From an uncultured Syntrophomonadaceae bacterium (GTDB lineage Bacteria; Bacillota; Dethiobacteria; DTU022): a stretch of 64,000 nt of DNA. The notes under the pieces are model-generated. The model was given only the letters and a program-made list of their open reading frames with translations, was not told where the DNA came from and searched no databases. Below, piece by piece: positions 1 through 64,000 of this stretch. The DNA is taken from assembly GCA_964420065.1 (NCBI GenBank), contig CAYQQK010000007.1, positions 5,462 through 69,461 of the forward strand, in the 5' to 3' direction. Numbering within the stretch: position 1 is the first letter of the stretch; every line of letters starts with the position of its first letter. Made by a program: the position numbers and the translations under genes.

Positions 1-1157
1 AAAAATTCGTGTTTGACCAGCGCCCAAACTTTGCGGGCCTGAAGGTAATAGCGCGCGTAATATTCCTGGCTCAGGAGGACGGTGCCGAAAACACTGTGGC
101 GAATTCCTTCTTCGCCCAGGGAGGCGGCCCGGGTTTCGCGGTACCGTTGTTCCAGATCTTGTTCTTCCGAGACGGTGCCGAAGCGGATTCCATCAAAACG
201 ACTCAAATTGGAGGATGCTTCGACCATGGCGATCACGTAATAGGCTTGCAGCGCTTCGCGGAATAAGGGCAGGGTAATTTCCACCGGTTCGATTCCCAGG
301 GCGGTGCAGGCCGCACGGGCTTGCTCCAGAACGGCCCGGACGGGCTCGTCAAGCATGGCGAAAACCTCCGTCGGAAAGCCGGCTTTGAGCTCTCCGGGCA
401 AAAAGTTCTTTCTTTCCCCGGGGGCCGGAAAACCCACCCCGGCGGCGGTTGTGGCCGGATCCCGCGGGTCGGGGCCGGCAATGGCCTGTAAACCCAAAAG
501 GGCGTCGGCGGGGTTCCGGGCCACGATTCCGGCCCGGGCAAAGGAGGGGGCGGCGCTGCACAAACCGTAACGTGAAACCAGCCCGGGGGTGGGGAGAAGG
601 CCGTACTGGCCGCAATGCGAGGCCCCGACCCGCAGCGCGCCCCCGGTATCGGAACCGAGAGCCAGGAGCGCCTGCCCCGCTGCAACGGCGGCTGCGGCGC
701 CGTCTCCGGCGACCCGGGACCGGTCCCAGGGGTTGGACGAAACGCCTGCGGCGGAGCGCACCGTGGATGAACCGAGGTCGTATTGGTCAAGGTTGGTTTT
801 ACCGAGAATGATGGCCCCGCTTGCAATAAGTTTGTGTACGGCGGCGGCGTCGCCGGGAGGCCGGAAGTCGTGCAGGGCGGCGCTGCCGCAGGTTACCGGC
901 CCGTCCCGGTAATAGAAGTTGTCTTTGACCACGACGGGTACGCCGGCCAGGGGCAGATCCAGACCCCGTTTAATTTTTTCATCCACCGCTCCGGCCTGGT
1001 CCAACGCCGAATCTGCAAATATCCGGGTCAAGGTATTGAGCGCTTCATTGGCGTCGTTGCACCGGGCCAGGTAGATCCCGGTCAGTTCCCGGGCGGTTAT
1101 CCTTCCTGAACGAACGGCTGCGGCTGTTTCAGCAGCGGTCAAATGGACCGGATCCAC
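1..1157 (-). CDS. gatA: GatA-like amidase-signature protein (Asp/Glu-tRNA amidotransferase subunit A homolog), 3' end outside the window; catalytic serines absent
   Basis: Not in the ORF track; translated by hand from GTG at 1157 (SD GGAGGAG at 1164-1170): MDPVHLTAAETAAAVRSG...PLAGVPVVVKDN...GKTNLDQYDLGSST...NPWDRSRVAGDGAAAAVAAG...LGSDTGGALR...YYVIAMVEASSNLSRFDGIRFG...YYLQARKV. Open to position 3. Lies directly downstream of gatC. Confidence 0.85.
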   Translation of the reverse strand, partial: MDPVHLTAAETAAAVRSGRITARELTGIYLARCNDANEALNTLTRIFADSALDQAGAVDEKIKRGLDLPLAGVPVVVKDNFYYRDGPVTCGSAALHDFRPPGDAAAVHKLIASGAIILGKTNLDQYDLGSSTVRSAAGVSSNPWDRSRVAGDGAAAAVAAGQALLALGSDTGGALRVGASHCGQYGLLPTPGLVSRYGLCSAAPSFARAGIVARNPADALLGLQAIAGPDPRDPATTAAGVGFPAPGERKNFLPGELKAGFPTEVFAMLDEPVRAVLEQARAACTALGIEPVEITLPLFREALQAYYVIAMVEASSNLSRFDGIRFGTVSEEQDLEQRYRETRAASLGEEGIRHSVFGTVLLSQEYYARYYLQARKVWALVKHEF

Positions 1158-1175
1158 GGCATCTCTCCTCCCGTT

Positions 1176-1460
1176 TTACTCGATAATAACCGGGACACGG
1201 TAAAAGCCCCCGGCAAAGTGTGTTCCGGAATGCTCCAGCCGGCCGGCTTCGATGTCAACCGGCTCGTCCTTGCGAAAAACATTAACCGCTTCATGGCCGT
1301 AGATGAGGGGTTCGGTTCCGTCCGGATCCACGGCCAGTAACGGTTCCAGCCATCGTTTAAACCCGGCCAGTTCCCGGACCAGCCGGTCTTCCGCGGCGCC
1401 GTTCAGCCCGATCATGATCGCTGCGGCAGCGCGCCGGATCGTCTCCCGCTCATTTTGCAT
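1176..1460 (-). CDS. gatC: GatC-like amidotransferase subunit C
   Basis: 94 aa; TEPL..HEAVNVFRKDEP and C-terminal GGFYRVPVIIE resemble GatC (VEP..H....NV.RED; FxVPxI); immediately upstream of the gatA-like gene. Confidence 0.75.
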   Translation of the reverse strand: MQNERETIRRAAAAIMIGLNGAAEDRLVRELAGFKRWLEPLLAVDPDGTEPLIYGHEAVNVFRKDEPVDIEAGRLEHSGTHFAGGFYRVPVIIE

Positions 1461-1558
1461 CGCAATCCCTCTTTTCTTGCACGATTCTTCCCATAGTATA
1501 GCATAATTATAAAAAGTTCATGGGCAAATATGTTATATTATGTGAGGGGTTCCGTGTC

Positions 1559-4500
1559 ATGATCACACTCATCTATTCGAATCAAACCGAACGCCTGCTC
1601 CGGGAATTGGCCCGGGATATCCGGGAATGGCGTGAAAACGGAGCACACCCGCTCGAACCGGTCGAGCTGGTGGTACCCAACCGGAATATGGAAACATGGC
1701 TCACCCTGGGCCTGGCCCAGTCGGCCGGGGTGGCCGCCAACTTGCGCTTCAACTGGCTCAACCGTTTTATCGGCGATCTGGTTGCCCGGGTCCGCCCCGG
1801 GGAGATGAAACTGGTCGACCTGGATACCGCCGAGGCGGCTGTTTTGGCGGTGTTGATGGATGAGGTGCTGCTCAAAACACCGGCCCTGCAGCCGGTGCAC
1901 CGCTACCTGTACGGTACCCGAACCGGAACAGGGGAAGGGACAGCGGTGGCAGGCGATCTCAAATGTCCGGCTCCTTGTAGCGGGTTTGACGCCTACCTGA
2001 CCCCGGATGGCGTCGATCTGCGCCGGGTCCAGCTGGCCGCCCGCCTCGCTTTTCTCTTTCAAGAGTACACCTTCTCCCGACCGGAAATGATTGCCACCTG
2101 GCGGGAAAACGGCGCTACAAAATTACCCGACGGTTGCGCCGGGCTGCCCTTTGCCGACCCGGTGCTGTTCGATCCGTCAGTTGAGGTAATCGTAACCTGG
2201 CAACGTGCTCTCTGGCGCGCCGTCTTCGGTCGCGACGGTGTTCTTGCCCGGCACCCTCCCCGGGAAGGAGGGCGTTGGGTGACCATGGATCTCCTGCTCC
2301 ACGACAGCGCTTTTTTCCAAAGTCTCGGCCGGAGCAAGCCGCCGCCGGTTCATCTTTTCGGGATTTCATACATGGCCCGCATCTTCCAACATTTCCTGGC
2401 GCGGTTGGGGGAGGTCATGACATTGCGCCTCTACAGCCTTAACCCTTGCGCCGAATTCTGGGAGGATGTCGAAACCCACCGGGAATTTTATCTTCGCCTT
2501 GATCAGGAACAAAACCGGCGTGAACGACGAGTTTGGCGGGGAGTGGGCGAGGGCGAAACAGTGGAAGATCCGTTCGGCCTTTTTGCCAAGGATACCACGG
2601 CGCTCCATTACTGGGGCCGTCCCGGCCGCGAAAATGTCCGCCTGCTCGGCGAATTGACAGATTGCGATTTTACCGGCGCTTTCGAACATCCTTCTGCTGT
2701 GACAGGCGGGCTTTTGCAGCGGCTGCAACTGGATGTGCTTTTGCGCGAACCGGAACGGAACGTCGACCGGGAAGAGGGTGCGGCAGAACCCGGGGCGGCA
2801 ACGGCCCCGACGGCGGATGAAACGATTCAACTCGTGGCGGCACCGTCGGTGCGCCGCGAAGTGGAGTGGGTGGCCGACGAAATCTGGAAATTGATGCGCG
2901 ATGAGGGGAACGAACCGCCTCTCCGGTTCAGCGATGTGGCGATTATCGTCAACAGTGCCGGAAAGGAGCTTTACCTGCCCGTGATCGAGACCGTTTTTGG
3001 CTCCTGCTGCGATCTGCCGTGCAGTATTTCCGATCTCCCCGGGGCCTCGGGCAGCCGGATCATCGAGGCCATGAACCTGCTTTTAAAACTGCCTTTCGGC
3101 CGTTTTTCACGGGCCGAAATGCTGGCGCTGCTGGGACATCCGGCGGTCGCCGGCGGTTTGGAAGATCTTACGCCCGCTGATTTGGCCGTCTTGGCCGAAA
3201 GACTGGGGATCGTCCATGGCGCCGATCACGGCGATCATGCCGGCACCTATATCAACGAAGATGTCTACAATTGGGACCAGGGCCTGCGGCGACTTGCTCT
3301 CGGCGCCTTCATGACCGGCGAAAAAAGCGGTGATGAACGTATATTGACCACTGCTCGGGGCAGATGGCTGGTCGAGGAAGTTTCCGGATCGGCGGCGCCG
3401 GCGACGGCGCATTTCGGGTTGATGGTGCGATCGCTTTTGGCCGATGCCCGTTTCGTGCGCCGGCAGCAGATGACCCTGGCCGGCTGGGCCAGTTTTTATA
3501 CGGCTCAGGTCGAAAACTACTTTCATGTGGCCGGCGGTGCCGATGAACGGGATCGCCTGCAACTGCTCCGTGCTCTCGGCAGGCTGGAGAAGATGGATCT
3601 GGGGCAGAAGGTGAGCGGCCGTATTGCAGCCGCGATTGCCGGCCGGGCAATTGATTCCCTGGGCGGCGGCCGGGGTCAGTACCTCACCGAGGGGGTGGTC
3701 GTTTCAACCTTTTTGCCGATGCGGGCGATTCCATTCCGTGTTGTTTTTTTGCTCGGGCTCGGGGAAGGGCTTTTCCCGGCCTCGGCTCAGCGGGACGCCC
3801 TTGATCTGCGTGCGGTACGGCGTCGGGCCGGGGATGTCGATCCGGCTGAACGGGACCGCTACATGTTCCTGGAAACGCTGCTCTGCACCCGGGAAAGATT
3901 TTACCTATCCTATGTCAGCAGGGACGAACATACCGGCGAACCGCTGCAGCCCTCGGCGGTGGTCCAGGAGCTGCTGCATATCATCCAGTTGAACTACCTT
4001 GGGCGGGAGGGGATCAGGCCGTTGCGTGCGGGACCCCCCGTACCGCTGCGCCGTTACGATATAGCGTCAACGCGGGGTGAAACGTTTTTCGATGAAGCGC
4101 GGGTGGAAGCGCGGCTGGCGGAGATTGCCCGGGCCCGGGATGCCGGGAGGAACGGTTACGGGGAAGAGGGGGAAGGGTGGGAAGATCGGGATGGTCGGGA
4201 TCGGCTGGGCCGGCGGTTGATGCGCTTTTTGAACAGGATCAACCCGGAACATCGCATCAATCTTTCGGCGATGCTCGCTTTACCCGGGGAACCGCCCCCG
4301 ACCGCCGCGGTTGATGCAACCGCTCGGTTAACCGGCGCCGGCAGATCCGGCGGAACCGAGGGGGCAAAGGTGATCGAAGCGCCGCGCCCGCTGGCGCTTC
4401 CTGTTTTACAGCGTTTTTTGGAATGCCCGCTGCAGGGCTGGGCGGCGGCGCTGCTCGGGTTAACCGCGGTTGAAGAAGATCCGGCTGACCGGGAAGAAGA

Positions 4501-5416
4501 GGACTTTGAAATAAACCCGCTTACAGAAACAGTGCTTTTAAGCGATGTTTTTTATGCGGCGGCGGCCGGAGGAGAATGCCCGGAAAAATTGTACGCAGAA
4601 CAGTTGTTGCGCCTGCGCCTGGCCGGGCGGATTCCGGCCGGTGCTTTCAGCGAAGCGATCCGGGCACGGCACCGGCGTATCATCGCCGGCTGGCGATCGC
4701 TTTTAAAAAAAGTGCAAAACTGTGCCGGCGGCGACGGGCCGCCCCGCCTCCTCCGCTACCGGCTGGGGCGTTCCGTCCGTCCCGTCCCGGCCGTGCGTGT
4801 TCTCGATCCGCTGCGCCTGGAAGTGGCCCCGGGCGAGTCGGAAAACCGGGACCGGAGCATCGTTCCGCTGATTTTAAACGGGCTTACCGAAGGGCTACTG
4901 AACGAAAACGGTGATGTCACCGCGGTCGTGATTCGAGCCCGGAAACCGCCCCGGAGCGATCACACAGAAACATGGGCCGGACAGTTTCGTTACCTGTTGC
5001 GGGGCGCGGTTACCCTGGCCGCCCTGAGTGCTGCGAACGTTGCCCGGGACGGAGCCCGGCAAATCGCGGTTCTTTACTCTGACGGTGATCATACCGGCGG
5101 ATTGCGGCTCCGGTTGCGCCCGCAACAACCGGAGCAGGCTCGCCATTGGCTGACCGCGATTGCGGAAGAGTTGCTGGCCGGCCCGCATGCTTACCTGCTC
5201 CCCTGCGAGGCCGTTTTCACCGCATATGATTCCGGTGCCGATCTGTGCGCTGAAATCGAAAAAATGGCCGGCGACGAATGGGTTCGTTTCTCCAGTTTGT
5301 GGGGCCCGGTTTCTTCACCGCGCCTTTACGCTCCGCCGGCGGCGGCGGTCAAACAGATGGCCGAGCGGCGTTTTGGCCCGTTTTTGAGAGAAATCCTGAG
5401 CCGGGAGGTATTCTGA
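1559..5416 (+). CDS. recC: Exodeoxyribonuclease V subunit gamma (RecC)
   Basis: N-terminal LIYSNQTERL, LVVPNRNMETWL, STFLPMRAIPFRVVFLLGL, DRYMFLETLL..RERFYLSYV, LQRFLECP; likely start ATG 1559 after GAGGGG; its stop overlaps the recB ATG. Confidence 0.9.
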   Translation: MITLIYSNQTERLLRELARDIREWRENGAHPLEPVELVVPNRNMETWLTLGLAQSAGVAANLRFNWLNRFIGDLVARVRPGEMKLVDLDTAEAAVLAVLMDEVLLKTPALQPVHRYLYGTRTGTGEGTAVAGDLKCPAPCSGFDAYLTPDGVDLRRVQLAARLAFLFQEYTFSRPEMIATWRENGATKLPDGCAGLPFADPVLFDPSVEVIVTWQRALWRAVFGRDGVLARHPPREGGRWVTMDLLLHDSAFFQSLGRSKPPPVHLFGISYMARIFQHFLARLGEVMTLRLYSLNPCAEFWEDVETHREFYLRLDQEQNRRERRVWRGVGEGETVEDPFGLFAKDTTALHYWGRPGRENVRLLGELTDCDFTGAFEHPSAVTGGLLQRLQLDVLLREPERNVDREEGAAEPGAATAPTADETIQLVAAPSVRREVEWVADEIWKLMRDEGNEPPLRFSDVAIIVNSAGKELYLPVIETVFGSCCDLPCSISDLPGASGSRIIEAMNLLLKLPFGRFSRAEMLALLGHPAVAGGLEDLTPADLAVLAERLGIVHGADHGDHAGTYINEDVYNWDQGLRRLALGAFMTGEKSGDERILTTARGRWLVEEVSGSAAPATAHFGLMVRSLLADARFVRRQQMTLAGWASFYTAQVENYFHVAGGADERDRLQLLRALGRLEKMDLGQKVSGRIAAAIAGRAIDSLGGGRGQYLTEGVVVSTFLPMRAIPFRVVFLLGLGEGLFPASAQRDALDLRAVRRRAGDVDPAERDRYMFLETLLCTRERFYLSYVSRDEHTGEPLQPSAVVQELLHIIQLNYLGREGIRPLRAGPPVPLRRYDIASTRGETFFDEARVEARLAEIARARDAGRNGYGEEGEGWEDRDGRDRLGRRLMRFLNRINPEHRINLSAMLALPGEPPPTAAVDATARLTGAGRSGGTEGAKVIEAPRPLALPVLQRFLECPLQGWAAALLGLTAVEEDPADREEEDFEINPLTETVLLSDVFYAAAAGGECPEKLYAEQLLRLRLAGRIPAGAFSEAIRARHRRIIAGWRSLLKKVQNCAGGDGPPRLLRYRLGRSVRPVPAVRVLDPLRLEVAPGESENRDRSIVPLILNGLTEGLLNENGDVTAVVIRARKPPRSDHTETWAGQFRYLLRGAVTLAALSAANVARDGARQIAVLYSDGDHTGGLRLRLRPQQPEQARHWLTAIAEELLAGPHAYLLPCEAVFTAYDSGADLCAEIEKMAGDEWVRFSSLWGPVSSPRLYAPPAAAVKQMAERRFGPFLREILSREVF

Positions 5417-8400
5417 TGGGCACTACTTACTACCCCCGGCCGGAAATCCTGGCCGGGGCTACGCACCGGTCGGGGCACATGGTGATCGAGGCGTCGGCCG
5501 GTACCGGCAAAACTTTTACCCTCGAGCACCTCGTGCTCGATCTGATCATCGGCAGGCAGGCCGGGATCGAGCAGATCCTTGTCGTTACTTTTACCGATGC
5601 GGCCACGCATGAATTGCGCGAGCGCATCCGAACCTTGATCCGGGCTGTCTGCGATTCCGGTGTAGGGGAGCTGGAATCCGGTGCGGATAGCAGTCGCTAC
5701 TGGGAGATCAACCGGGCTACCCGGGGCCGCTTGCGCGAAGCCCTGTTTCGTTTTGATGGGGCCGCGATCGCGACGATTCACGGTTTTTGTCAGCGCATTC
5801 TGTCCGAACAGGCGTTTCTTGGGGGGCGATTGTTCCGGCAAGAACATGCGCATGGTCGGGAAATGTTCGGGCAGGCTTTTCGGGAGGAGGTCCGCCGGAC
5901 CCTGGGTCAAGAAAACCCGGCCGGAGCCGCTCTACGGCGCTGGATCGATCAGGAACGTTCCCTGCAAAAAGTTCAGGATTTGCTTTACCGCTGCCATCGG
6001 GAGGGCTGCCCGGAACGTTGCCCGGTGACCCCGCAGTGCGACCCGGAGGGGTTTCTTGATGCCATGGGCAGGCTACCCCGTCTGGAAGCATTGTTGCACG
6101 CAGCAGAAGATTACTTCGCGGATCGCCATTCCAGGCGGGGTTATCAAAAGCTGTTTCGCGGCCTGTTTGCTCTTGCCGGCATGATCGAGTCCGGTCCGGC
6201 TCTCTTTGAAACGGTGCCGCCGTTCCTGGAATGGGTGGTCGAAGATTGCGGGATCAACTCGGTTCAACAAACCCGGTTGAACCACGTTCATTGTGCCGCG
6301 GCGAGCGCCGGGGCGCCGCCGGAATTCAAGGCACTGGCTGCCTGCCTCGATCGAATGATCTTGCGGGCGGTTTCCGAGCCTGCTTGTTTTATCCACCGGT
6401 TGCTGCCGCGTGTGCAGGCGCGCCTCGACCTGCGCAAACGTGCTCTTGGTTTGATTGATTACGATGACATGCTCCTCGGGGTTCGGGAAGCGTTGGCGGG
6501 CGAAAATGCCCCGGTCCTGCTTGATGTGCTCAGGAGACGCTGGAAGTATGCCCTGGTTGATGAATTTCAGGATACAGATCCGGTTCAGTGGGAAATTTTC
6601 AGGCGGATTTTTGTCGACGGTGCAGGGGAACAGCGCCTTTTCATTATCGGTGACCCCAAACAGGCCATTTACGGCTTTCGAGGCGCAGATGTTCATACCT
6701 ACCGCACGGCCCGGGATCACCTGCTGACGAAACAGGGGACCGTCCGGTTGCCGCTGATCAAAAACTACCGATCCACCCCGGCGCTGATCCAAGCGGTGAA
6801 CGCAATTCTGACCGCAGCGGACGGCACCGGATCCGGTTTCTTTGACGGTCCCAACCGTTACGATCTACCGGTGCAGTGTGGTGACACCACCCGGGGCGCC
6901 ATCGAAAACGGGAAAGCGGCGGTCCCGGTGCATCTGGTCCATCTTTACGGTGTCGGGGCCCCCTTGAAGGCCGCTCTGCTCAGGCGGGGTCTGGCCAACT
7001 TTATTGCCCAGGAAATACAACGCTTGACGGATCCGCAAACCGGTCTGGCCACGATGCGGCGCGGGGGGGCGCCCGTGCCGGTCAAGCACAGCGATATTTA
7101 TATTCTCACCCGTTCCGGCTGGGAAGGTCGCCGGATCGGTGCGGTCCTGCGCCGTTACGGCATTCCCCATGCCTTCTACAAATTGGACGGTCTTTTTGCC
7201 ACCGACGAAGCCCGGGATATCCACCGTTTGCTCCTGGCGATCGACGCGCCGCAGGATCCTTCATTACGGATGGCGGCCTGGTTGACCCCCTTCTTTGGGG
7301 TGCCGCTGGAGGATCTGCCGCGTTGGCAGGATGCCGCTGCGCACCATCCGTTACCGGCGCGGTTGCTGCGTTGGAACCGGCTTGCCGCCGCCCGGGAGTG
7401 GGCCCGTCTCTTTGATGATATCCTGAACACATCCGGCCTGATCCGGCGTCTTATTTTCGCCGGCGGCGAGCGCGAGCTGACCAACTATATTCACCTGTTT
7501 GAGCTGCTCCTGGCCGAAGTGTATACCCACCCGATTTCGGTGACTGAATTGGCCCGTGGGCTCAAAGCACGCATCGACGGCCGGGATATGCCCGAGGGGC
7601 GTGAGGGGGACCTGCAACGGCTGGAGACGGAAAAGGATGCGGTGCAAATTTTAACCATGCACAAGGCCAAGGGTCTTGAGGCGGAAGTGGTTTTTGTTGG
7701 GGGAGGGTTCAGCAACCCGCCCGGCGATCCCCTCCAGGTTAACATTTACCACCGCAACCGCCGGCGCTGCCTGCACCTCGGCCGGGCCGGCGGGGAGATC
7801 GCTGCGGCGATCGAGGCGGAAACACGCCAGGAAAACCAGCGCCTGGCCTATGTGGCTCTGACCCGGGCCGGCGCGCGGCTTTACCTGCCTTATTTTGGCC
7901 CGGCCCCCGCCGGTTGCAACGCGGATGATAAAAGTTTCGTTTTTTGTAAACTCGGGGACTTTTACCGGCCCTTGCAAAAACAGCTTGATCGTTTGTGCGA
8001 TCAGGGGCGGCTCGGTGTCGGGCAGCTTTTTATGCGGCGCGAAGCACCGTGCCGGGTACGTTTCCCGCATGAACGCAGTGTCCCGTCCGGTCCGGAAGAT
8101 TGGCTGGGAAAATACCTGCCCTGGGAACCTCCGACCAAAACGGCCGAAGCCGTAAAGATTAAAACACGGCGCCGGGGGGTGATCCTGACCAGTTATACCC
8201 GGATCAAACAGGGGCGGGGCTGGCAGCCTTTCGACTCCGGCGAAGACGGGGGAGGTGACCGGCGCAATGAAGAGGTGGCCGGTGAGGTTTCGGACGCTCT
8301 TGTCCTTCCGGACCCGGGTTCAATTGAACCGGCCGCCCCGGAAAATTTCCCCGGGTTGCCCGGCGGCCGGGAAAACGGTATATTTTTACATGCTCTCCTC

Positions 8401-9171
8401 GAGGAAATCACGGCCGCGGAAATAGCGGGACAAAGTTTTGCTGAATGGTCGGCGCAGGCGGCATTGCGGGCGCGGGCCGCAGCCATCGCCAGGCGGCACG
8501 GGTTTCCTGAAATCTGTCTGCCGGTTGCCCTGAAGCTGGTTTACCGTGCCTTCCGGACGCCGCTTCGGGTGCAAAACCGGGAAGGTGGTTTCACCCTCGA
8601 TCTGCCGGAGGGGATCGCCTCCGGCGAGCACCTGCGGGCCGAGATGCCCTTCGTTTTCCCCATTCCGGAATATTTTCATCCGCTCCTGGGTGAAGGGAAA
8701 AAGGAGTCCGGGCCGGGCATCAATCCGGATCGTTTTCCCTTTCAGGCCCGGCGCGGCTACATCCGGGGTTTAATCGATCTTGTTTTTGAACATCGCCAGC
8801 AAATATATTTGCTCGATTGGAAAAGTGACAGTCTGGCTTCTTTCGAGGCGGACCGGGTCCGGGAGCACGTTGAAGCCAATTACCGTCTCCAGGTGCAGTT
8901 TTACCTGCTGGCCGTGGTTCGCCTGCTCGGCCTCGGGTCAAGAGAAGAATATGACTTGCGTTTCGGTGGGGTGCTCTACTTTTTTTTGCGGGGCCTCACC
9001 GGGGAAGCCGGGCGGCCGGCCACGGGTGTCTGGTTCTCACGCCCGCCCTGGGAACGGGTGGTTTTTCTGGAACAGGAATTGCTCAAACGTCAGGAATGGG
9101 GTGGCGCGGTAATTGCCGCTACGGAAGAGACGGCGCCGGAAGGAGGGCGGGCGCGGTGCAGGCAAATTTGA
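5416..9171 (+). CDS. recB: Exodeoxyribonuclease V subunit beta (RecB), UvrD-type helicase plus C-terminal nuclease
   Basis: Walker A IEASAGTGKT, LVVTFT, LVDEFQDTD, IGDPKQAIYGFRGAD, LTMHKAKGLE, YVALTRA; nuclease motif GLIDLVF...LLDWKS; ATG 5416 overlaps the recC TGA. Confidence 0.95.
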   Translation: MGTTYYPRPEILAGATHRSGHMVIEASAGTGKTFTLEHLVLDLIIGRQAGIEQILVVTFTDAATHELRERIRTLIRAVCDSGVGELESGADSSRYWEINRATRGRLREALFRFDGAAIATIHGFCQRILSEQAFLGGRLFRQEHAHGREMFGQAFREEVRRTLGQENPAGAALRRWIDQERSLQKVQDLLYRCHREGCPERCPVTPQCDPEGFLDAMGRLPRLEALLHAAEDYFADRHSRRGYQKLFRGLFALAGMIESGPALFETVPPFLEWVVEDCGINSVQQTRLNHVHCAAASAGAPPEFKALAACLDRMILRAVSEPACFIHRLLPRVQARLDLRKRALGLIDYDDMLLGVREALAGENAPVLLDVLRRRWKYALVDEFQDTDPVQWEIFRRIFVDGAGEQRLFIIGDPKQAIYGFRGADVHTYRTARDHLLTKQGTVRLPLIKNYRSTPALIQAVNAILTAADGTGSGFFDGPNRYDLPVQCGDTTRGAIENGKAAVPVHLVHLYGVGAPLKAALLRRGLANFIAQEIQRLTDPQTGLATMRRGGAPVPVKHSDIYILTRSGWEGRRIGAVLRRYGIPHAFYKLDGLFATDEARDIHRLLLAIDAPQDPSLRMAAWLTPFFGVPLEDLPRWQDAAAHHPLPARLLRWNRLAAAREWARLFDDILNTSGLIRRLIFAGGERELTNYIHLFELLLAEVYTHPISVTELARGLKARIDGRDMPEGREGDLQRLETEKDAVQILTMHKAKGLEAEVVFVGGGFSNPPGDPLQVNIYHRNRRRCLHLGRAGGEIAAAIEAETRQENQRLAYVALTRAGARLYLPYFGPAPAGCNADDKSFVFCKLGDFYRPLQKQLDRLCDQGRLGVGQLFMRREAPCRVRFPHERSVPSGPEDWLGKYLPWEPPTKTAEAVKIKTRRRGVILTSYTRIKQGRGWQPFDSGEDGGGDRRNEEVAGEVSDALVLPDPGSIEPAAPENFPGLPGGRENGIFLHALLEEITAAEIAGQSFAEWSAQAALRARAAAIARRHGFPEICLPVALKLVYRAFRTPLRVQNREGGFTLDLPEGIASGEHLRAEMPFVFPIPEYFHPLLGEGKKESGPGINPDRFPFQARRGYIRGLIDLVFEHRQQIYLLDWKSDSLASFEADRVREHVEANYRLQVQFYLLAVVRLLGLGSREEYDLRFGGVLYFFLRGLTGEAGRPATGVWFSRPPWERVVFLEQELLKRQEWGGAVIAATEETAPEGGRARCRQI

Positions 9172-12416: not shown

Positions 12417-12517
12417 GACGGAAGGGTCGTTGCCGCATCGCATCCAGTTTAACCGGTACCCGGGGTGGGGCCGATCCCTGAACCCAGTACTTTCTGGTCA
12501 AAAGGAGTAGGGAAGAA

Positions 12518-52557: not shown

Positions 52558-53268
52558 CTATTTATGGTCAATCACGGCCAACCTGCGGTTCATTGCATCC
52601 AGAGTGGCTTTGGCGGTGGCTTCAAGCGGGTCTCCCTTGTCCAGAGCCGTTCCCAACAGTATTTCTTCCCGGTCACCTAGATGATGTGATACGAACACGA
52701 CAATGATTTCCTGTCCCGAGAGATTGATCTGGTGCACGGCGTCGGCATTCAAGTTTTTGGAGATACATTGTCCATTTATAACCGCATCCAGCGTAGCCCG
52801 GGCGACCAGATGGAGACGGTTGCGGCTGGTGTTGGGGCCGGAGGCTGTGCCTTTGAACCGGTCGTTGCCCAGGGCGATGGTGGTAAAGACATCGATTTCC
52901 TGTCTGCCGGCAACACAGCCTATTTCAACCAGCTTGAAACGTGGGAGGGACCGGGCAATCTGTTTTTCCTTCCGGTCAAGCTGAGCAATGCTGATGCATT
53001 TATGATCGATCGGCAAACCCAACTTGACCAGGATCGCCGATTCGATATCCCGTACAACTTGTTTCGGGGAACGGCTGGAGTCGGCCAGAACATGGATTTC
53101 GACGATCTCCCGATCTTTGCAAACTACCCGGGACGACAGTACACCCTGGACCTGGGCAATGATATTTTCAATACTTCTGTCCGGTTGCTCGGGCTGGCCT
53201 GAAATCGCATTATCCTCCCTTAACCCATTATAACCTTTGATGACAGGTTTGTCCAAATATTGGTGCAA
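52558..53268 (-). CDS. Conserved-looking hypothetical protein with possible LeuA-regulatory-like C-terminal repeats
   Basis: N-terminal VQGVLSSRVV...IVEIHVLA...RSPKQVVRDIESA...IDHKCISIAQL; two similar helices GTASG...LVARATLDAV and GTALDKGDPLEATAKATLDAMNR. Confidence 0.8.
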   Translation of the reverse strand: MHQYLDKPVIKGYNGLREDNAISGQPEQPDRSIENIIAQVQGVLSSRVVCKDREIVEIHVLADSSRSPKQVVRDIESAILVKLGLPIDHKCISIAQLDRKEKQIARSLPRFKLVEIGCVAGRQEIDVFTTIALGNDRFKGTASGPNTSRNRLHLVARATLDAVINGQCISKNLNADAVHQINLSGQEIIVVFVSHHLGDREEILLGTALDKGDPLEATAKATLDAMNRRLAVIDHK

Positions 53269-53342
53269 GTTATGGAAAATGAACGATATTGTATTTCGCC
53301 TTCAAACAGGCAATTCCTCTATTCTCGAGGTGAAATATAACA

Positions 53343-55562
53343 TCAGCACTCACTGAAACCGCACGCTTCACACTTTAAACAGCCTTCGGCTCGAATCAAG
53401 GCGGCGGTGCCGCAATCGGGACAGATCTCGGTGCACGATAGGTTGTTGCTTTCAATTCCGGCATCATCGACCCGGGCCAGTTCCTTCAAGGCCCGTCCGA
53501 TGGCATCGGGGACGCTCATGATCCGGTTCGGACCGAAGCCGACCGAACGAGCGCCGCCGATTCCCGTCAATTGCGCCACGATTTCATCCACGCTCACCCC
53601 GCAGCGCAGGGCCAGGGAAACCAGTCGTGCCACCGCTTCGGTGAAGGCGACGACATCACTGCCGGCTTTGCCGATCTGCGCGAACAGTTCGAACGGTTTT
53701 CCGGCGACGGTGTTTACGGTGACAAAAAGGTTACCCAGGGCGGTGTGGACACTGGTGGTATTACCGACAAGCGTTTTCGGCCGTTTGGTCGGCTTGAGAT
53801 CGTCCTGGGCCGGACCCGTTCCGGTATGAAGGACCTGTTGCTGGCGGGAACCGTCCCGGTAGATCGTAATCCCCTTGCAGCCCGCCCTCCAGGCGGAAAG
53901 ATAGGCTTCCCGGACCTCTTCCGGGGCGGCTTCGTGGCGCAAGTTGATCGTTTTGCTGACGGCATTATCGGTATACTTTTGAAATGCAGCCTGATGGCGG
54001 ATATGCCAGGAAAGATCGATTTCAAGGGCGGTTTTGAACAGTTGCCGCGTTTTTTCGGGAAGCGGTATTTCTTCGGGCAGGCGGCCGGTTTTGGCGATGG
54101 CCCGGATCAGTGTTTCACTGTAAAGCCCTTCCTTTCGGGCTATTTCGAGAAAAACCGGGTTCACTTCGGGCAGGTCGATCCCCCCGAGAATATTCCGGCG
54201 GACAAAGGCGAGGCTGAAATAGGGTTCGATGCCGCTGCTGGCTCCGGCGAGGATGGAAATGGTGCCGGTCGGAGCGATGGTGGTACAGGTGGCGTTACGC
54301 ACGCGATCTTCCGGCCGCCCGGTGTCGTAGATGCTGCCCGGAAAAGCAGGGAAAACGCCCCGTTCTTCAGCCAGAGAGACCGATTCTCGCCGGGCCTCCG
54401 CACTGATGTATCCCATTATTTTTTCGGCCATGACCAGAGCTTCTTCGCTGTCGTAAGGGAGCCCAAGACGGACGAGGAGGTCATGCCAGCCCATCACGCC
54501 GAGGCCGATTTTCCGATTGCCAAATTTGTGCATCCGGGCGATCTCGTCGATAACATAGCTACTGGCATCAATGGCGTTATCAAGAAAGCGTACTGCGGTG
54601 TGCACCACCCGGCCGAGTTTGTCCCAGTCGACGGCGCCTTCGGGCGTGAAAAATTTGCCGAGATTGATCGATCCGAGGCAGCAGGCCTCGAAGGGCAGGA
54701 GGGGTTGTTCACCGCAAGGGTTGGTCGTTTCAAAACGTCCCCGGTGCGGGGTCGGGTTGGCTTCATTCATCCGGTCAATAAAAATAATGCCGGGATCCCC
54801 TTTGGACCATGCTTTTTCGACCATCAAGTCAAACACTTCACCGGCATCAAGCCGCGACGGCCGGTCAGCGAAGGGGTCCCGGTAAGGAAGGCCGGTACGC
54901 GGATTGATCAGGTCGTAGAAGGGATCGGGTTCTTCACCGGTGGCTTTACGCATAAATTCATCCGAGACGGAGACGGAAAGGTTGAAATTGGTGATCTCCT
55001 CTTCCTTTTCTTTGCAGCAGATAAATTCGATTATATTCGGATGGTTGTAGATCAGAGAACCCATGTTGGCCCCCCGGCGGGTGCCGCCCTGCTTGACCGC
55101 TTCGGTGGCGGCGTCGAAAATTTTCAAAAAAGAAAGCGGGCCGCTGGCCACCCCGTTGGTGGAACAGACAGTATCCCCGCTCGGTCTGAGGCGGTCAAAA
55201 GCAAATCCGGTGCCGCCGCCGGTTTTTTGAACCAGGGCCATCTGTTTAAGGGTTGTGAAAATGCCCTCCATGCTGTCTTCGATCGGGAGGACGAAGCAGG
55301 CGCTAAGCTGTTGCAGTTCCCGTCCGGCGTTCATTAAAGTGGGTGAGTTGGGCAGAAAGAGCGCATCGGCCATGATCCGGTAAAATTCCTTTTCCATTTC
55401 CCGTTCCGCCGTTTCATCTTTACCGTATTCGGTTTCCACAGCCGCAATATTTTTGGCGACGCGGTGTAAAAGATCGGCCGGGGTTTCTAGCGGTCGCCCC
55501 TTTTCGTCTTTCTTCAGGTATCTTTTTTCGTAGGTAATGCGGGCGTTTTCGGAAATATTCAA
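53343..55562 (-). CDS. nrdJ: Adenosylcobalamin-dependent (class II) ribonucleotide reductase
   Basis: FLPNSPTLMNAG, QLSACFVL, GGGTG, TTNPCGEQPL, RKIGLGVMG, TIAPTGTIS, DNAVSKTIN, KGITIYRDGSR, C-terminal TSCPD-like domain and CPDC...CEAC ribbon; TTG 55562 after GGAGGAG. Confidence 0.93.
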   Translation of the reverse strand: MNISENARITYEKRYLKKDEKGRPLETPADLLHRVAKNIAAVETEYGKDETAEREMEKEFYRIMADALFLPNSPTLMNAGRELQQLSACFVLPIEDSMEGIFTTLKQMALVQKTGGGTGFAFDRLRPSGDTVCSTNGVASGPLSFLKIFDAATEAVKQGGTRRGANMGSLIYNHPNIIEFICCKEKEEEITNFNLSVSVSDEFMRKATGEEPDPFYDLINPRTGLPYRDPFADRPSRLDAGEVFDLMVEKAWSKGDPGIIFIDRMNEANPTPHRGRFETTNPCGEQPLLPFEACCLGSINLGKFFTPEGAVDWDKLGRVVHTAVRFLDNAIDASSYVIDEIARMHKFGNRKIGLGVMGWHDLLVRLGLPYDSEEALVMAEKIMGYISAEARRESVSLAEERGVFPAFPGSIYDTGRPEDRVRNATCTTIAPTGTISILAGASSGIEPYFSLAFVRRNILGGIDLPEVNPVFLEIARKEGLYSETLIRAIAKTGRLPEEIPLPEKTRQLFKTALEIDLSWHIRHQAAFQKYTDNAVSKTINLRHEAAPEEVREAYLSAWRAGCKGITIYRDGSRQQQVLHTGTGPAQDDLKPTKRPKTLVGNTTSVHTALGNLFVTVNTVAGKPFELFAQIGKAGSDVVAFTEAVARLVSLALRCGVSVDEIVAQLTGIGGARSVGFGPNRIMSVPDAIGRALKELARVDDAGIESNNLSCTEICPDCGTAALIRAEGCLKCEACGFSEC

Positions 55563-55925
55563 AGCAGCTCCTCCCTGTCCCTGTGATCTATTTTTTACGG
55601 CGGGCGCCTGGCCGGGGATCAATCTACTACAACCGGCTCCAGGTCACATTGTAACATTTTCATTCATGGATGAACATACCATGGCGTCGTTTCGGTTTCA
55701 GGGGCGGTCCGGACGGCAGGATACGGCAAATAGCAACAGATTTCAAGGAAATTTTTGATCGGGGTGGGAAGCCCCAATTTACGGCAGGGACGTTTTTCTG
55801 CCACTACTGCTCTTTTCAGCGCCGTTCCCCTCTTTTTTTCTCGAAACAGAACTGCTATAATGAGCAACAGGATTGAAAGGCTTGGTTTGGGCCCTGCCCG
55901 CAGCAGAAGTAAAGGAGGAGACGAT

Positions 55926-59088: not shown

Positions 59089-60714
59089 ATGACCAAGCAT
59101 ATTTTTGTTACCGGCGGCGTGGTTTCTTCTCTGGGGAAGGGCATTACTGCCGCTTCTCTGGGATGCTTGCTCAAGACCCGCGGTTTGAAGCTGACCATGC
59201 AAAAGCTCGACCCCTACATCAATCTTGATCCGGGCACTATGAGCCCGTACCAGCATGGAGAAATATTTGTCACCGATGACGGGGCGGAAACCGATCTTGA
59301 TCTGGGCCATTACGAGCGCTTCATCGATGAAAATTTGACCCGGGATAGCAATGTCACCACCGGACGGGTTTACTGGTCGGTCATACAAAAAGAGCGGAAA
59401 GGCGGTTTCAGGGGGAAAACGGTGCAGGTCATCCCGCACATTACGGACGAGATCAAGGCCCGGGTGCAGACAATTCCACGGGCCAATCCCGATCTGGACG
59501 TGCTTATCACCGAAATCGGCGGGACGGTGGGGGATATCGAAAGTCTTCCCTTTCTGGAAGCCATCCGCCAGATGCGGGCTGATCTGGGCCGAGAAAACGT
59601 GATCTACATTCACGTCACCCTGGTCCCGTACCTGCCCATGTCCGGAGAATTAAAGACCAAGCCGACCCAGCACAGTGTCAAAGAGCTGCGCAGTATCGGT
59701 ATTCAGCCCGATCTGATTGTCTGCCGCACCGAACAACCCCTGCCCCGGGAGCTGAAAGATAAAATTGCCCTCTTTTGCGATATCGAGCCGCATGAGGTGA
59801 TCGAAAATTTGAGCACCCCCATTATTTACGCGGTTCCCCTGATGATGCAAGAACAGCGTCTGGATGAGCTGGTTTGCCGGAAGCTGCACCTGAACTACGG
59901 TCCTGGGGATATGAGCGGTTGGCGCCGGGAGGTGGAGAGGGCGGGACGCCTGCAAAACCACGTCACCATTGCCCTGGTGGGCAAGTACATTTCGCTGCCG
60001 GACGCTTATTTAAGTATTAACGAATCACTTTTTCATGGCGGGCTTCACCATGATACGGCAGTAGAAGTAAAGCTGATCAACGCCGAAGAGATGGAGTGCA
60101 CTCGGCCGGAAGAGTCCCTGCGGGGTGTAGACGGGATCCTGGTCCCGGGGGGATTCGGAAACCGGGGCATAGAAGGAAAGATCAACGCGGTCCGGGTAGC
60201 CCGGGAGCAGAAAATACCTTTCCTTGGAATTTGCCTCGGGATGCAGTGCGCTGTGATCGAATTTGCCCGAAACGTGGCCGGATTGGAGGGGGCTCACAGT
60301 GTTGAATTTGACGATCAAACCCCGCACCCGGTGATCGATTTTGTACCGGGGCAGGAGGAGGAAACCCGGGTCGGCGGTACTTTGCGTCTCGGAGCGCACC
60401 CTTGCCTGCTGAAAGAAGGGACCCTGGCCAGTTCTATTTATGGAACAACCCGGATCTCCGAACGGCATCGTCACCGTTACGGGTTTGCCGATCGTTACCG
60501 CACGACGCTGGAGGATAAAGGTTTGATCTGTAGTGGTGCCGCCCGGGAAACCGGCCAGGTCGAAATTGTGGAGCTGGCGGATCATCCCTGGTTCGTAGGC
60601 AGCCAGTACCATCCGGAATTCAAATCGCGCCTGCACTGCCCCCATCCTTTATTCCGGGATTTTATTGGGGCCGCGCTACGTCGGAAGGGCGGGATCGGAC
60701 CGGAAAACCGGTGA
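59089..60714 (+). CDS. pyrG: CTP synthase
   Basis: [72 protein letters not shown] (glutaminase triad intact). Confidence 0.97.
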
Positions 60715-60773
60715 TCCGGGGTTGACGGAAAGGCCGGATCCGGCAAGAGCTTTGCCGGTTAAGCCGGAATCCT

Positions 60774-61880
60774 TCAATGCGGCCGATGATGCTGGAGGAT
60801 GTTTTCCAGTACCGTCCGTGAGAGATCGTTGATCTCTTCAAAGCGCATGTTTGGGATATAATAAGCTTCCAGTTCGTCGTGAACTTCCCGAACCCGGCGG
60901 AGGAAAGATATGGCTGTTTCAAGGGATTGCTGAAAGTAGGTCCGGGCAATTGTCCGTTCCCCGGCGACTCGGGTGTCCGGGTGATGGACGAAAATGCCGG
61001 TTTCAATGACCCGGTCGCTGCCGCAGGCTTCCATCTGGTGTGGGGGGACGCTGTTCACGACTCCGGTTTTCAGTTCGGGGATGATCACGTGATCGATCCG
61101 GTACGGATCGAGGGCGCAGTGGTAGGCTTCGACGAAAAACCCTCGCAGGATCGCCGCATCTTTGATCCGGGTGATCAGTTCGTTTTTGCCGGTGCCATCG
61201 TCTCCGGAAACGATGTAAAGGTTGCTCACGCCGGCGATGATCGTTTCAAGGTGATCGACTGTTCCATCGGGAGTAATGGCGGTGGCAAAGAGGTGACGTT
61301 CCCGGCGCCGGTGCTCGTAAGGGCCGGTTTTATTGTTAAAAATGGCATCGATTACCTCTAGCGATTGACGTTGCAGGCCGGCCTGGTCCAGGGCGTTATT
61401 TTCCCGGTAATAATCTTCCACCTCGTCCAAAAAAAGCTTGGCCGCGGCCAGATAACGGTAGGTACGGCGATAAAGACGGGCTTTCTCCCGGTTTGCGCGT
61501 ATTATCTTTTCGCGGTGGGCGACCATGGCGGCTTCGTTCCAAAATTCCCCAAGGTGGATGATCTCATCCACTGCGCCCGGGTTCTTCGGATCGACCACGT
61601 GAGGCGCGGTCCCGTCGATGCAGGCGATCTTCAGGGCGGGGATAACAATACCGTCCAGGGAAGTGCTGTCGGCAGAGCAGCAGTGATATTCCAGATCCAG
61701 GCCCCGCCGGAGCAGCTCTCGGCCGATATTGCGCATGAAAGTAGATTTCCCCACCCCCGGGCCGCCCTTGATCACGAAAATGCGGGTGGCGTCTTCCTCG
61801 ATAATCTGGTCGTAAAATGAATAAAAACCATAAGCCGAATTGGAACCGGGAAATACCTTTTTTAACTTTCCGCGGGGCAT
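60774..61880 (-). CDS. PRK06851-family tandem P-loop ATPase
   Basis: FPGSNSAYGFYSFY, KGGPGVGKSTFM, HCCSAD..SLDG, DGTAPHVVDP, FATAITPDG, second P-loop GDDGTGKN. Confidence 0.85.
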   Translation of the reverse strand: MPRGKLKKVFPGSNSAYGFYSFYDQIIEEDATRIFVIKGGPGVGKSTFMRNIGRELLRRGLDLEYHCCSADSTSLDGIVIPALKIACIDGTAPHVVDPKNPGAVDEIIHLGEFWNEAAMVAHREKIIRANREKARLYRRTYRYLAAAKLFLDEVEDYYRENNALDQAGLQRQSLEVIDAIFNNKTGPYEHRRRERHLFATAITPDGTVDHLETIIAGVSNLYIVSGDDGTGKNELITRIKDAAILRGFFVEAYHCALDPYRIDHVIIPELKTGVVNSVPPHQMEACGSDRVIETGIFVHHPDTRVAGERTIARTYFQQSLETAISFLRRVREVHDELEAYYIPNMRFEEINDLSRTVLENILQHHRPH

Positions 61881-62072
61881 CGATCAAGCACCCTCCCCTG
61901 TATTTTAGAACTAACTTATACTATGTGCCAAAAGGGGTTTTGGTTAGTCCCCGGCTGTAGGCCGGGGTGCAGGATCAGCCCGGCCGGGTGCCGAACTAGT
62001 GGCCATTACGGTGATGTTGCATCGGACGGGAGCATAATAGAGAATATGCAACATCAATGGAGGAATGAAACG

Positions 62073-63467
62073 GTGTTCAAAGTTCGGTCAGGCGCACGCC
62101 CCCGGGAAGCCTGCGGCATTTTTGCCATTCACAACTACCGGGGCAGCCGCACCGCCGCCGAAATATCTTTTTTCGGCCTGCTGGCCCTGCAGCACCGCGG
62201 TCAAGAAAGTGCCGGGATGGCTTATTCTGCCGCGGACGGCATGCAGTGCTACCGGGGGGCGGGCCTAGTCGCCCAGGTATTTTCCCGGGAAGCCCTGGCC
62301 GAAATTACGGCGCCCTCCATCTTGGGGCATGTTTGTGATTCCGGTGGGAGCGACATGAAACAGCCGCTGGTGGCCCGTCCAGCCCGCGGTGGAGGCCTGG
62401 CCGTGGCCCATAACGGTAATCTTTTTTTTGCGGCCGCCTTGCGCCGGGAACTGTTCGAACAGGGCCAAATTTTTCACACGGTATCCGATAGCGAGGTCAT
62501 GCTGACCTTGCTGTTCCGCTACCGCCGCCACGGTCCTGCAGCGTCTGTCCGCCGGATGATGCACCTGGCGGAGGGTGCTTACGCCGCCGTCGTTGTTGAT
62601 GCCCGGCGAACCGTTGCTTTTCGGGACCCGCGCGGCTTTCGTCCCTTGTGTATCGGCCGCCTCGAAAAGGCTTATGTTTTTGCCTCCGAAAGCTGCGCTC
62701 TTGATGCCGTGGGCGCGTCATATTTGAGGGAGGTCGAGCCCGGAGAGATCGTTGTCGTGGAGGGCGAGAATCTGATTTCCCATCCCGCACCGGCTTCGAT
62801 TCCCCGTGCGTTTTGCATCTTTGAATATCTCTATTTCGCCCGGCCCGACAGCGTTCTTGGGGGGCAAAATGTGCACCTGGTGCGTAAGGCTATCGGCGCC
62901 GGGTTGGCCCAGCGGCTTCCCGGGCAAATTGATCTGGTTGTTCCTTCACCCGATTCCGGTGTTTCCGCGGCCATGGGTCTGGCCGAAGCGGCGGGATTGC
63001 CCCTCGAGTGGGGGATCCACCGCAGTTCCTATCACGGGCGTTCTTTTATTGAACCAACCGCGCGCAGCCGGGAAATGACGGCACGGCTTAAATACAACCC
63101 GGTTACCGCTTTGGTGTGGGGGAAACGGGTTGCGGTGGTGGATGATTCCCTGGTCCGCGGCACTACCGCTCGGATCATAACCGCCCTATTGCACCAGGCC
63201 GGCGCGGCGGAGGTGCATCTCTGTATCGCCGCGCCACCGCATTTTTATCCTTGCCATTACGGAATTGATATTCCACTGTCTTCCGAACTGGCTGCGGTGA
63301 ATTGCAGTCCGAAATCCCTGGCCCGGTCGGTTGGCGCGGACAGTATCACCTATGCCACTTTGGAAGATCTTTTTGCCGCCGTACGGGGCGACGCTGCAGA
63401 TTACTGCACCGCCTGCTTTACCGGCTCCTACCCGGCCGGTGCGGGCCGAAAGGTGGAGAACGGCTAA
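62073..63467 (+). CDS. purF: Amidophosphoribosyltransferase with degenerate glutamine-binding motif
   Basis: REA|CGIF propeptide/Ntn Cys, LQHRGQESAG, HNGNL, SDSEV, RDPRGFRPL, CIFEYLYFARPDS, VDDSLVRGTT, PCHYGID, CTACFTG; GHVRYST replaced by GHVCDSG; GTG 62073 after GGAGG. Confidence 0.9.
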   Translation: MFKVRSGARPREACGIFAIHNYRGSRTAAEISFFGLLALQHRGQESAGMAYSAADGMQCYRGAGLVAQVFSREALAEITAPSILGHVCDSGGSDMKQPLVARPARGGGLAVAHNGNLFFAAALRRELFEQGQIFHTVSDSEVMLTLLFRYRRHGPAASVRRMMHLAEGAYAAVVVDARRTVAFRDPRGFRPLCIGRLEKAYVFASESCALDAVGASYLREVEPGEIVVVEGENLISHPAPASIPRAFCIFEYLYFARPDSVLGGQNVHLVRKAIGAGLAQRLPGQIDLVVPSPDSGVSAAMGLAEAAGLPLEWGIHRSSYHGRSFIEPTARSREMTARLKYNPVTALVWGKRVAVVDDSLVRGTTARIITALLHQAGAAEVHLCIAAPPHFYPCHYGIDIPLSSELAAVNCSPKSLARSVGADSITYATLEDLFAAVRGDAADYCTACFTGSYPAGAGRKVENG

Positions 63468-64000
63468 TGGATCACTTCGTGGTCGATGACGGTTGGGACG
63501 CCCGGACAGCAGATAAATTTGTTCACGCCGCCGTCGCCGGGATCCGCCGTACCGTCAGCCCGGAGGGACGGGTGGTTTGTGCTTTAAGCGGCGGTATCGA
63601 TTCCAGCGTGGTCGCATTTCTGCTGGACCGGGCGGTCGGTGAACGCACCGTTTATATTTTTGTTGACCACGGACTACTGCGGCGGGACGAGGCGGAGGCC
63701 ATCACCCGCTTTTTTCGGGAACGGTTGCAGGGCGAATTTGTAGCCGTCGACGCCCGAAAGCGCTTTCTGGCGCGCCTGAAAGGGGTGATCGACCCGGAGA
63801 AGAAACGCCGGGCCATTGGCGCGGAATTCATTACGGTCTTTAAGGAAGAAGCCCTTTTACGGGGAGATATCCGTTACCTTGCCCAGGGAACCATCTCTTC
63901 AGACGTGGTGGAAAGCGGCGCTGCCGGCAGCGGTGCGATCAAAGCGCATCATAATGTGGGCGGTCTGCCCGCCGAACTCGGTTTTACCCTGGTAGAGCCG
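63467..64000 (+). CDS. guaA: GMP synthase ATP-pyrophosphatase (synthetase) subunit without GATase domain; runs off the window end
   Basis: Not in the ORF track; ATG overlaps the purF TAA; MDHFVVDDGWDARTADKFV...VVCALSGGIDSSV...FVDHGLLR...DPEKKR..IG..FI...LAQGT...DVVES...IKAHHNVGGLP. Confidence 0.88.
   Translation, partial: MDHFVVDDGWDARTADKFVHAAVAGIRRTVSPEGRVVCALSGGIDSSVVAFLLDRAVGERTVYIFVDHGLLRRDEAEAITRFFRERLQGEFVAVDARKRFLARLKGVIDPEKKRRAIGAEFITVFKEEALLRGDIRYLAQGTISSDVVESGAAGSGAIKAHHNVGGLPAELGFTLVEP

Follow-up and report, generated by a model that had tools for sequence, protein, structure and literature searches.

Can a bacterium shed the glutaminase parts of its glutamine amidotransferases and keep the synthase parts? 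The question is raised by a 64-kb stretch of contig CAYQQK010000007.1 (the whole of it called the window hereafter; G+C ~57%), which comes from an uncultured Bacillota lineage of manure-fed anaerobic digesters. Its four amidotransferase genes are located at both ends (Table 1): gatC and a gatA-like gene on the minus strand at the left, pyrG, purF and a guaA-like gene on the plus strand at the right, with a divergently transcribed P-loop ATPase gene between pyrG and purF. Glutamine amidotransferases are the textbook example of obligate coupling of a glutaminase to a synthase through an ammonia channel, and their NH3-dependent activity is usually regarded as a laboratory curiosity. An earlier note on this DNA had claimed that GatA lacks its serines, PurF the Arg-Tyr of its GHVRY motif and GuaA its glutamine amidotransferase (GATase) domain, that PyrG keeps its Cys/His/Glu, and that three enzymes have thus lost glutamine handling, perhaps as an adaptation to an ammonia-rich anoxic habitat or as NH3-specialised paralogues. 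Alignment bore out the four sequence claims, and related metagenome-assembled genomes (MAGs) extend the pattern beyond the window, as pdxT and hisH are also missing from a conserved block. The explanation that appears probable to us is that a Bacillota lineage living in digesters has genuinely lost glutaminase modules, in stages, and that its synthase sites take NH3 directly.

The GatA lesion is a double one. Aligned with the Aquifex protein (3h0l_A), 'VPGGSSGGSAASVA' becomes 'VAGD---GAAAAVA' and 'GSDTGGSIRQPAS' becomes 'GSDTGGALRVGAS'. The three-residue deletion takes away the two serines of GGSSGGS, and an alanine stands at the position of the nucleophile, Ser178 of S. aureus GatA (PMC2330236). 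Of the Ser-cisSer-Lys triad (Ser of GSDTGGS, cis-Ser of GGSSGGS), only the lysine of VKDN survives (K78, window 924-926), and the window GatA is predicted to be glutaminase-dead. The gene is preceded by a ribosome-binding site, GGGAGGAG; its complete product (P0001, 481 aa) is 100% identical to the window part, and gatB comes next in locus L003. The fold is retained, the AlphaFold model of P0001 (pLDDT 85) giving TM scores of 0.90-0.91 to 4wj3_A, 3h0l_A and 2df4_A. The enzyme thus resembles the bacterial GatCAB of S. aureus (2df4) and Aquifex (3h0l) in its gatC-gatA-gatB operon, its GatA fold (TM 0.90) and its canonical GatB kinase/transamidase, but differs in the absent cis-Ser and in a nucleophile serine replaced by alanine or a variable residue. 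With 379.7 bits, GatA also falls under the 481.1 cut-off of the NCBIfam equivalog TIGR00132, which is still by far its best-matching family. GatC scores under its own cut-off as well (TIGR00135, E 8e-9, 35.7 bits against 47.1); a Pfam GatC match is found in L001 and L003.

The same deletion is common to every member of a discrete GatA clade, which comprises P0001-P0020 and P0030 and shares 41-78% identity with the window protein; the residue at the old nucleophile site varies within it (S, A, T, G, V or E). In the database search, canonical GatA proteins start just under this identity range. When 1.84 billion representative proteins were searched exhaustively with a profile, the clade made up ~7-8 clusters of the 16,533 GatA-like representatives. 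In every locus examined, from four separate lineages (L003, L004-6, L097-100), its gatA sits within gatC-gatA-gatB, and one such Ser-less operon is located among smc, ftsY, ffh, rpsP and trmD. The window organism has a canonical GatB (E 7e-154 to its Aquifex counterpart), and two clade members share 71% identity in GatB, 55% in GatA and 39% in GatC. The simplest reading of these comparisons is an old, selectively maintained and catalytically dead GatA that would still be a subunit of a working GatCAB. The age and conservation of the Ser-less clade, and its presence in genomes that keep other glutaminases, would also suit a GatA serving as a non-catalytic scaffold for another ammonia-generating partner of the asparaginase or nitrilase type, or a complex with a new role that has nothing to do with tRNA transamidation. 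Other roles have been taken up by GatA relatives, AtzE (6c62) and Tse8 being among the structural or sequence neighbours. However, no candidate partner gene beside gatCAB is conserved in the four contexts seen, and GatB and GatC are still typical, which makes this alternative very improbable.

Degenerate GGSSGGS or nucleophile motifs are also present outside the deletion clade, in P0371, P0380, P0390, P0420 and P0470. These forms appear independent in alignment, and the catalytic residues may have been lost several times. Adjoining gatCAB in the window (1520-11189, plus strand) are three large genes of the RecC, RecB (UvrD helicase and PD-(D/E)XK nuclease) and RecD types. Bacillota more often use AddAB, and a RecBCD-type set may be unusual in the phylum.

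In guaA the loss concerns a whole domain. The complete GuaA, found on sister contig L002 (328 aa), comprises NAD_synthase and GMP_synt_C domains and has no GATase Pfam match. It scores 428.9 bits against TIGR00884 (guaA_Cterm), over the 338.75 cut-off, and the window part aligns to residues 209-375 of E. coli GuaA only. The P-loop of the ATP-pyrophosphatase and the C-terminal dimerisation domain are kept, while the N-terminal class I GATase domain with its Cys-His-Glu triad is absent. Truncation at a window or contig end was rejected as the cause, since the full 328-aa gene is present in L002 and L008, with its own start overlapping the purF stop. The short GuaA has many homologues of 325-330 aa, and its nearest homologues (65-83% identity) are a mix of such proteins and full-length ones of 526 aa: P0242 (83%) is of the short kind, and P0243 (77%) is full-length and has its GATase triad intact. 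Judged by this comparison, the GATase domain is shown to have been lost by deletion in place. A tblastn search of the window with the N-domain of a relative's GuaA gave no match, the only GATase similarity there being that of pyrG, and tblastn revealed no separate gene for a GATase subunit A there or in the flanking DNA of L002, L007, L008 and L009-12.

Bacterial GMP synthetases are of the two-domain type, two-subunit enzymes occur in archaea, and the ATP-pyrophosphatase module is active without its GATase, with external ammonia as substrate and a Km for NH4+ of 26-174 mM (PMC10526850). The window GuaA is similar to the archaeal B subunits (P. horikoshii 2dpl, M. jannaschii 6jp9) in being a stand-alone ATP-pyrophosphatase and dimerisation protein of ~310-330 aa, a module whose use of external NH3 is known in vitro. 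In contrast to these, it is bacterial, its nearest relatives are two-domain GuaA of Bacillota (66-77% identity), its GATase domain has been deleted in place downstream of purF, and no gene for a subunit A is seen. In the closest public genome (L007, GCA_900198705.1, the 906-kb scaffold FZPS01000131.1), runs of N lie inside guaA and upstream of purF; gene calls are truncated near them, PurF being called as 418 aa.

The neighbourhood of guaA in relatives reveals that GuaA is not an isolated case. In a genome with a canonical PurF (L096, GCA_033549065.1), purF, guaA (526 aa), pdxT, pdxS, hisF and hisH form one block, and a second genome (L013/L015, GCA_012521155.1) displays pyrG, glnA, the ATPase gene, carA, guaA (525 aa), pdxT and pdxS. 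The closest relative of the window (L008, 84% PurF identity) carries pyrG, the ATPase gene, purF, the 328-aa guaA, pdxS, hisF and then smpB, and two further lineages (L009-11; L012, GCA_964463285.1) carry pyrG, the ATPase gene, a short guaA, pdxS and hisF. The ATPase (358-369 aa), whose position between pyrG and guaA or purF recurs in L008 and L009-L013, anchors these alignments. Three class I glutaminase modules (the GuaA N-domain, PdxT and HisH) are thus gone from one conserved block with their synthase partners intact, the loss of pdxT and hisH being seen in close relatives that span the region just beyond the window end. The stretches available amount to ~80 kb of the window genome and ~13-21 kb per relative. 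Within the window, L002, L007, L008 and L009-12, tblastn with queries from intact relatives found no GuaA N-domain, PdxT, HisH, CarA or GlnA, and returned only weak matches to the GATase domain of PyrG. In the same type of search, the remaining partners are 76-77% (PdxS), 63-70% (GuaA C-terminal part) and 55-62% (HisF) identical to those of L096, and the gene beside pdxS (254-281 aa) passes the HisF equivalog model TIGR00735. A scan of genome contigs for the block across GTDB species used very general peptide patterns (HHNVGGLP, RQPFPGPGL), and among the matches listed only distant GuaA loci (50-58% identity) were seen. Around purF, guaA and pyrG, an Rfam scan detected tRNAs only and no riboswitches.

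The orphan PdxS proteins bear a trace of the missing partner. PdxT docks on the N-terminal helix αN of PdxS (PMC11708016). In three orphan PdxS (L008, L009 and L012), αN is 29-47% identical to a partnered reference, as compared to 77-79% for the remainder of the protein; in a PdxS still partnered with PdxT the values are 82% and 84%. The conserved αN motif lost in the orphans is present in Geobacillus PdxS. This decay is evidence that PdxT would be truly gone and not relocated. It bears directly on the main rival explanation, in which glutamine dependence is restored in trans, GuaA subunit A, PdxT, HisH and a canonical GatA being encoded elsewhere after mere rearrangement. Such an arrangement has a precedent in the archaeal two-subunit GMP synthetases and would agree with the gate residues kept by HisF. 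Yet bacterial GMP synthetases are described as two-domain enzymes (PMC10526850), the three modules vanished together from a conserved block and left no fragments, and the Ser-less gatA is held by the gatCAB operon itself. On balance, partners encoded elsewhere are unlikely.

Ammonia is usable in vitro by both the PdxS/PdxT pyridoxal phosphate (PLP) synthase and the HisF/HisH imidazole glycerol phosphate synthase. PdxS is able to use it directly (PMC11708016). The PdxS and HisF described here are typical and well conserved by comparison with these systems, and differ from them in two respects: the block lacks the glutaminase partners that relatives carry in it, and αN of PdxS has diverged. The loss of gate or interface residues in HisF was also considered as support and rejected, these residues being mostly retained; Asp98 is lost in one of three orphan proteins. 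In L096 (9638-12592, minus strand), hisH, hisF, pdxS and pdxT follow each other in one string, made of two synthase/glutaminase pairs of different pathways. Only hisF and pdxS remain of this string in the short-guaA lineages, where hisF lies away from a his operon. In L013 (2621-6908), glnA and carA lie between pyrG and guaA; they are not at the corresponding place of the window (60714-62073).

The alteration of PurF is of a different kind. The protein passes TIGR01134 (410.7 bits, cut-off 350), and 'GHVRYATAGGGGYENVQP' in B. subtilis PurF (1ao0) is aligned with 'GHVCDSGGSDMKQP' in the window protein, which reads GHVCD where the canonical motif is GHVRY. In E. coli PurF, mutations of Arg73 and Tyr74 are said to impair glutamine binding and coupling and to spare the NH3-dependent reaction. 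Compared with PurF of the B. subtilis type, the window protein retains the N-terminal nucleophile Cys1, the Asn-Gly and Asp residues, the 4Fe-4S cysteines, which align with those of 1ao0, and the phosphoribosyltransferase domain; it differs by the natural Arg to Cys and Tyr to Asp replacements and the shortened glutamine loop, found in two closely related sequences only. Indeed, the Arg-Tyr pair is missing in 2 of the 41 closest homologues, namely in the window protein and in P0122 (GHVCDASGGSG), a relative at 84% identity; GHVRY is kept by P0123 (80% identity, GCA_900198705.1) and by all 38 other aligned homologues. It is also kept by P0166, a PurF adjoining another short guaA. The change is local and of recent date. 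Poor binding and coupling of glutamine would follow from it, not necessarily a dead domain, so that a loss of glutamine handling, as first proposed, overstates the case of PurF, for which an impaired binding or coupling is the most that can be claimed.

Are these genes spare copies? Gene order makes the altered gatA, purF and guaA look like orthologues: gatA is embedded in gatCAB, purF-guaA lies in synteny with its canonical counterpart in L096, and none of them is an obvious spare. Because the purF-guaA pairing is itself conserved, the window purF is regarded as the orthologue of canonical purF, and the genes do not look like NH3-specialised paralogues. The GatA and PurF lesions are rare, as their counts illustrate, and therefore the presence of these lesions together on one contig is not a chance pattern. 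As far as the sequences tell, the losses are staged, that of GatA being the oldest, those of the GuaA N-domain, PdxT and HisH coming later in a subset of lineages, and that of PurF being the most recent, in the immediate lineage of the window. The order is documented by P0243, which is still a full-length GuaA at 77% identity, and by P0123, which keeps GHVRY at 80%. Moreover, a Ser-less GatA (P0011) and a full-length GuaA (P0246) occur in the same four or five MAGs according to their protein accession runs (HOB86482/HOB86628, HOP68779/HOP69197, HPT33854/HPT34603, HQD06446/HQD07073), and the P0246 locus carries glnA, carA and pdxT.

Since the data are metagenome assemblies, an assembly or sequencing artefact has to be considered. 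It is almost certainly not the cause: identical proteins come from the independent runs SRR8925751, SRR8925752 and SRR8925753, a second species-level relative (SRR8925785) shows a PurF lesion in a form of its own together with a short guaA, and the members of the GatA clade originate from NCBI, ENA, JGI and Logan assemblies. A further candidate is an auxotroph whose pathways are decaying. Purines, vitamin B6, histidine and the amide amino acids would then be scavenged from the digestate, and the genes would be turning into pseudogenes. The nutrient-rich habitat, an Opp-type peptide transporter in the window (44593-50193) and a GatA that evolves faster than GatB are consistent with it. However, the reading frames are all intact, between lineages that split only once the loss had occurred the synthase modules are still 55-79% identical, and GatB is conserved to the degree given above. 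The damage is limited to glutaminase parts, which whole-pathway decay would not predict. Decay is hence quite improbable.

Staged loss with direct use of NH3 accounts for this pattern as follows. The synthase modules would stay under selection while the glutaminase modules go stepwise, each synthase site taking NH3 straight from the ammonia pool of the cell. The short GuaA would adenylate xanthosine monophosphate and aminate it with free NH3; in PdxS and HisF, NH3 would enter via the barrel opening that formerly faced the glutaminase. In PurF it would be used at the phosphoribosyl pyrophosphate site, the N-domain being kept for structure or regulation. In GatCAB, NH3 might enter through the vestigial pocket and tunnel of GatA, or directly at GatB, with GatA and GatC acting as a scaffold only. 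GatCAB, HisF and PurF accept ammonium in vitro. The glutaminase losses are seen in the genes themselves, and it is from them that we infer the use of NH3.

The source contigs come from runs SRR8925751-53 and SRR8925785. Runs SRR8925751-58 are listed among metagenomes of digestate from full-scale biogas plants that are mostly fed manure (PRJNA533495, PMC7842101); SRR8925785 is outside the run list of that study. Total ammonia across its plants ranges from 184 to 3124 mg/L, or 13-223 mM, at pH 7.3-8.6 (examples of Table S1, PMC7842101). With tens to hundreds of mM total ammonia in this pH range, the NH3 route would be workable and selection on the glutaminases relaxed. The ammonia-rich anoxic habitat proposed in the earlier note thus finds support in the manure digestates. 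The losses, however, are not simultaneous but staged over widely different time depths.

Several observations weigh against staged loss with NH3 use. The Ser-less GatA is also found in MAGs with full-length guaA, pdxT, carA and glnA, and therefore its inactivation neither needs nor proves a general ammonia shift. The Table S1 values are per plant and not tied to the source runs. PyrG keeps its class I GATase triad (GICLGMQ, HPEF), and glutamine is, as its intact domain indicates, still used by at least this enzyme, which implies that it is still made or imported. PurF retains Cys1 (C14), Asn-Gly (N114-G115) and Asp (D139), and some glutaminase activity may survive. The identity ratio of its N- to C-domain is 0.85-0.89, against 0.95 +/- 0.06 for canonical pairs, i.e., ~1-1.7 standard deviations lower. 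Wholesale decay of this domain was rejected, the ratio being only slightly low, in favour of a local lesion. HisF keeps its ammonia-gate residues Arg5, Glu46, Lys99 and Glu167 in the orphans. Finally, the stretches seen are short enough to leave room for glutaminase partners or canonical paralogues elsewhere. A broader proposal is that this free-living lineage is moving to an amide-nitrogen metabolism that largely bypasses free glutamine, with NH3 as donor for GMP, phosphoribosylamine, PLP, histidine and tRNA-bound Gln/Asn (the latter with a scaffold GatA); it is put forward as a speculative and rather doubtful extension.

Table 1. Positions in the window of the amidotransferase genes, of their diagnostic sites and of the ATPase gene
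Feature	Position	Strand	Remarks
gatC, 94 aa, first gene of the gatC-gatA-gatB operon	1176..1460	-	NCBIfam TIGR00135
gatA-like, first 385 of 481 codons in the window, C-terminus cut by the window start	3..1157	-	GTG start at 1157; E 8e-69 to Aquifex GatA 3h0l_A
GatA Gly151-Asp152, 3-residue deletion: Ser-Ser of GGSSGGS gone, including the cis-Ser of the catalytic triad	702..707	-	
GatA Ala174, replacing the nucleophile Ser (Ser178 in S. aureus GatA)	636..638	-	
pyrG, CTP synthase, intact class I glutaminase domain, internal control	59089..60714	+	E 3e-190 to 1vco
PyrG motif GICLGMQ	60226-60246	+	
PyrG motif HRHRY	60466-60480	+	
PyrG motif YHPEF	60607-60621	+	
P-loop ATPase, PRK06851 'hypothetical protein' family	60774..61880	-	anchors the block pyrG - ATPase - (purF) - guaA - pdxS
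purF, 464 aa (P0121), altered glutamine site	62073..63467	+	GTG start at 62073, stop codon ends at 63467; E 5e-113 to B. subtilis PurF 1ao0
PurF Cys88-Asp89, replacing Arg-Tyr of GHVRY (E. coli Arg73/Tyr74)	62334..62339	+	glutamine loop 4 residues shorter
guaA, ATP-pyrophosphatase and dimerisation domains, first 178 of 328 codons in the window	63467..64000	+	ATG at 63467 overlaps the purF stop (TAATG), gene runs past the window end; TIGR00884
GuaA P-loop SGGIDS	63587-63604	+	

Between the two amidotransferase ends, the window harbors several other gene sets. At 11319-13633 (plus strand), the gene for a KamA-like radical-SAM lysine 2,3-aminomutase comes after that for an ATP-grasp protein of the D-Ala-D-Ala ligase C-terminal type, and the pair may be β-lysine-related. 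An MmgE/PrpD-family protein, a 2Fe-2S/4Fe-4S protein and a FAD_binding_2 flavoprotein are encoded in series (17693-21719, plus strand), next to a citrate-lyase cluster on the opposite strand (21828-26461) comprising a citX-citG fusion, a GNAT-like gene, citF and citE. Further on (40308-44310, plus strand), a protein with a NifX-like FeMo-cofactor-binding domain, a 276-aa protein, XdhC, a 140-aa open reading frame (42472-42894) and a YqeC::MobA-like fusion (471 aa) are encoded one after another and together resemble a locus for molybdenum hydroxylase maturation. At 52558-55622 (minus strand), a 235-aa protein with no Pfam match is the neighbour of a class II-type ribonucleotide reductase that has a TSCPD domain; no cobalamin riboswitch reaches the Rfam gathering score in the whole window.

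It is already known that each of these synthases accepts NH3 in vitro and that NH3-dependent enzyme families exist. NH3-dependent NadE and AsnA likewise are synthetases that work without a glutaminase module; these are old separate families, whereas here several enzymes of one lineage are at different stages of loss. In the literature searched, no earlier reports were found of a conserved Ser-less GatA inside gatCAB, of a bacterial stand-alone GuaA ATP-pyrophosphatase arising from in-place deletion, of PdxT, HisH and the N-domain of GuaA being lost in a coordinated way, or of glutaminases lost in combination in digesters. The automatic annotation of the altered amidotransferases as 'glutamine-hydrolyzing' is probably wrong.

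If the proposed explanation is true, the NH3 route can carry physiological flux in up to five enzymes (GatCAB, GuaA, PdxS, HisF and PurF), close relatives of which keep the intact state. Under the broader, more doubtful proposal, high environmental ammonia could strip the glutaminase layer from central metabolism, with intermediate stages surviving in relatives. The lineage would provide a comparative series for the evolution of channel and interface residues after the loss of a partner, and a glutaminase-independent GatCAB would become available for work on tRNA-dependent amidation. The pattern would also be a possible genomic marker of high-ammonia adaptation in digesters, the operation of which is hampered by ammonia inhibition.

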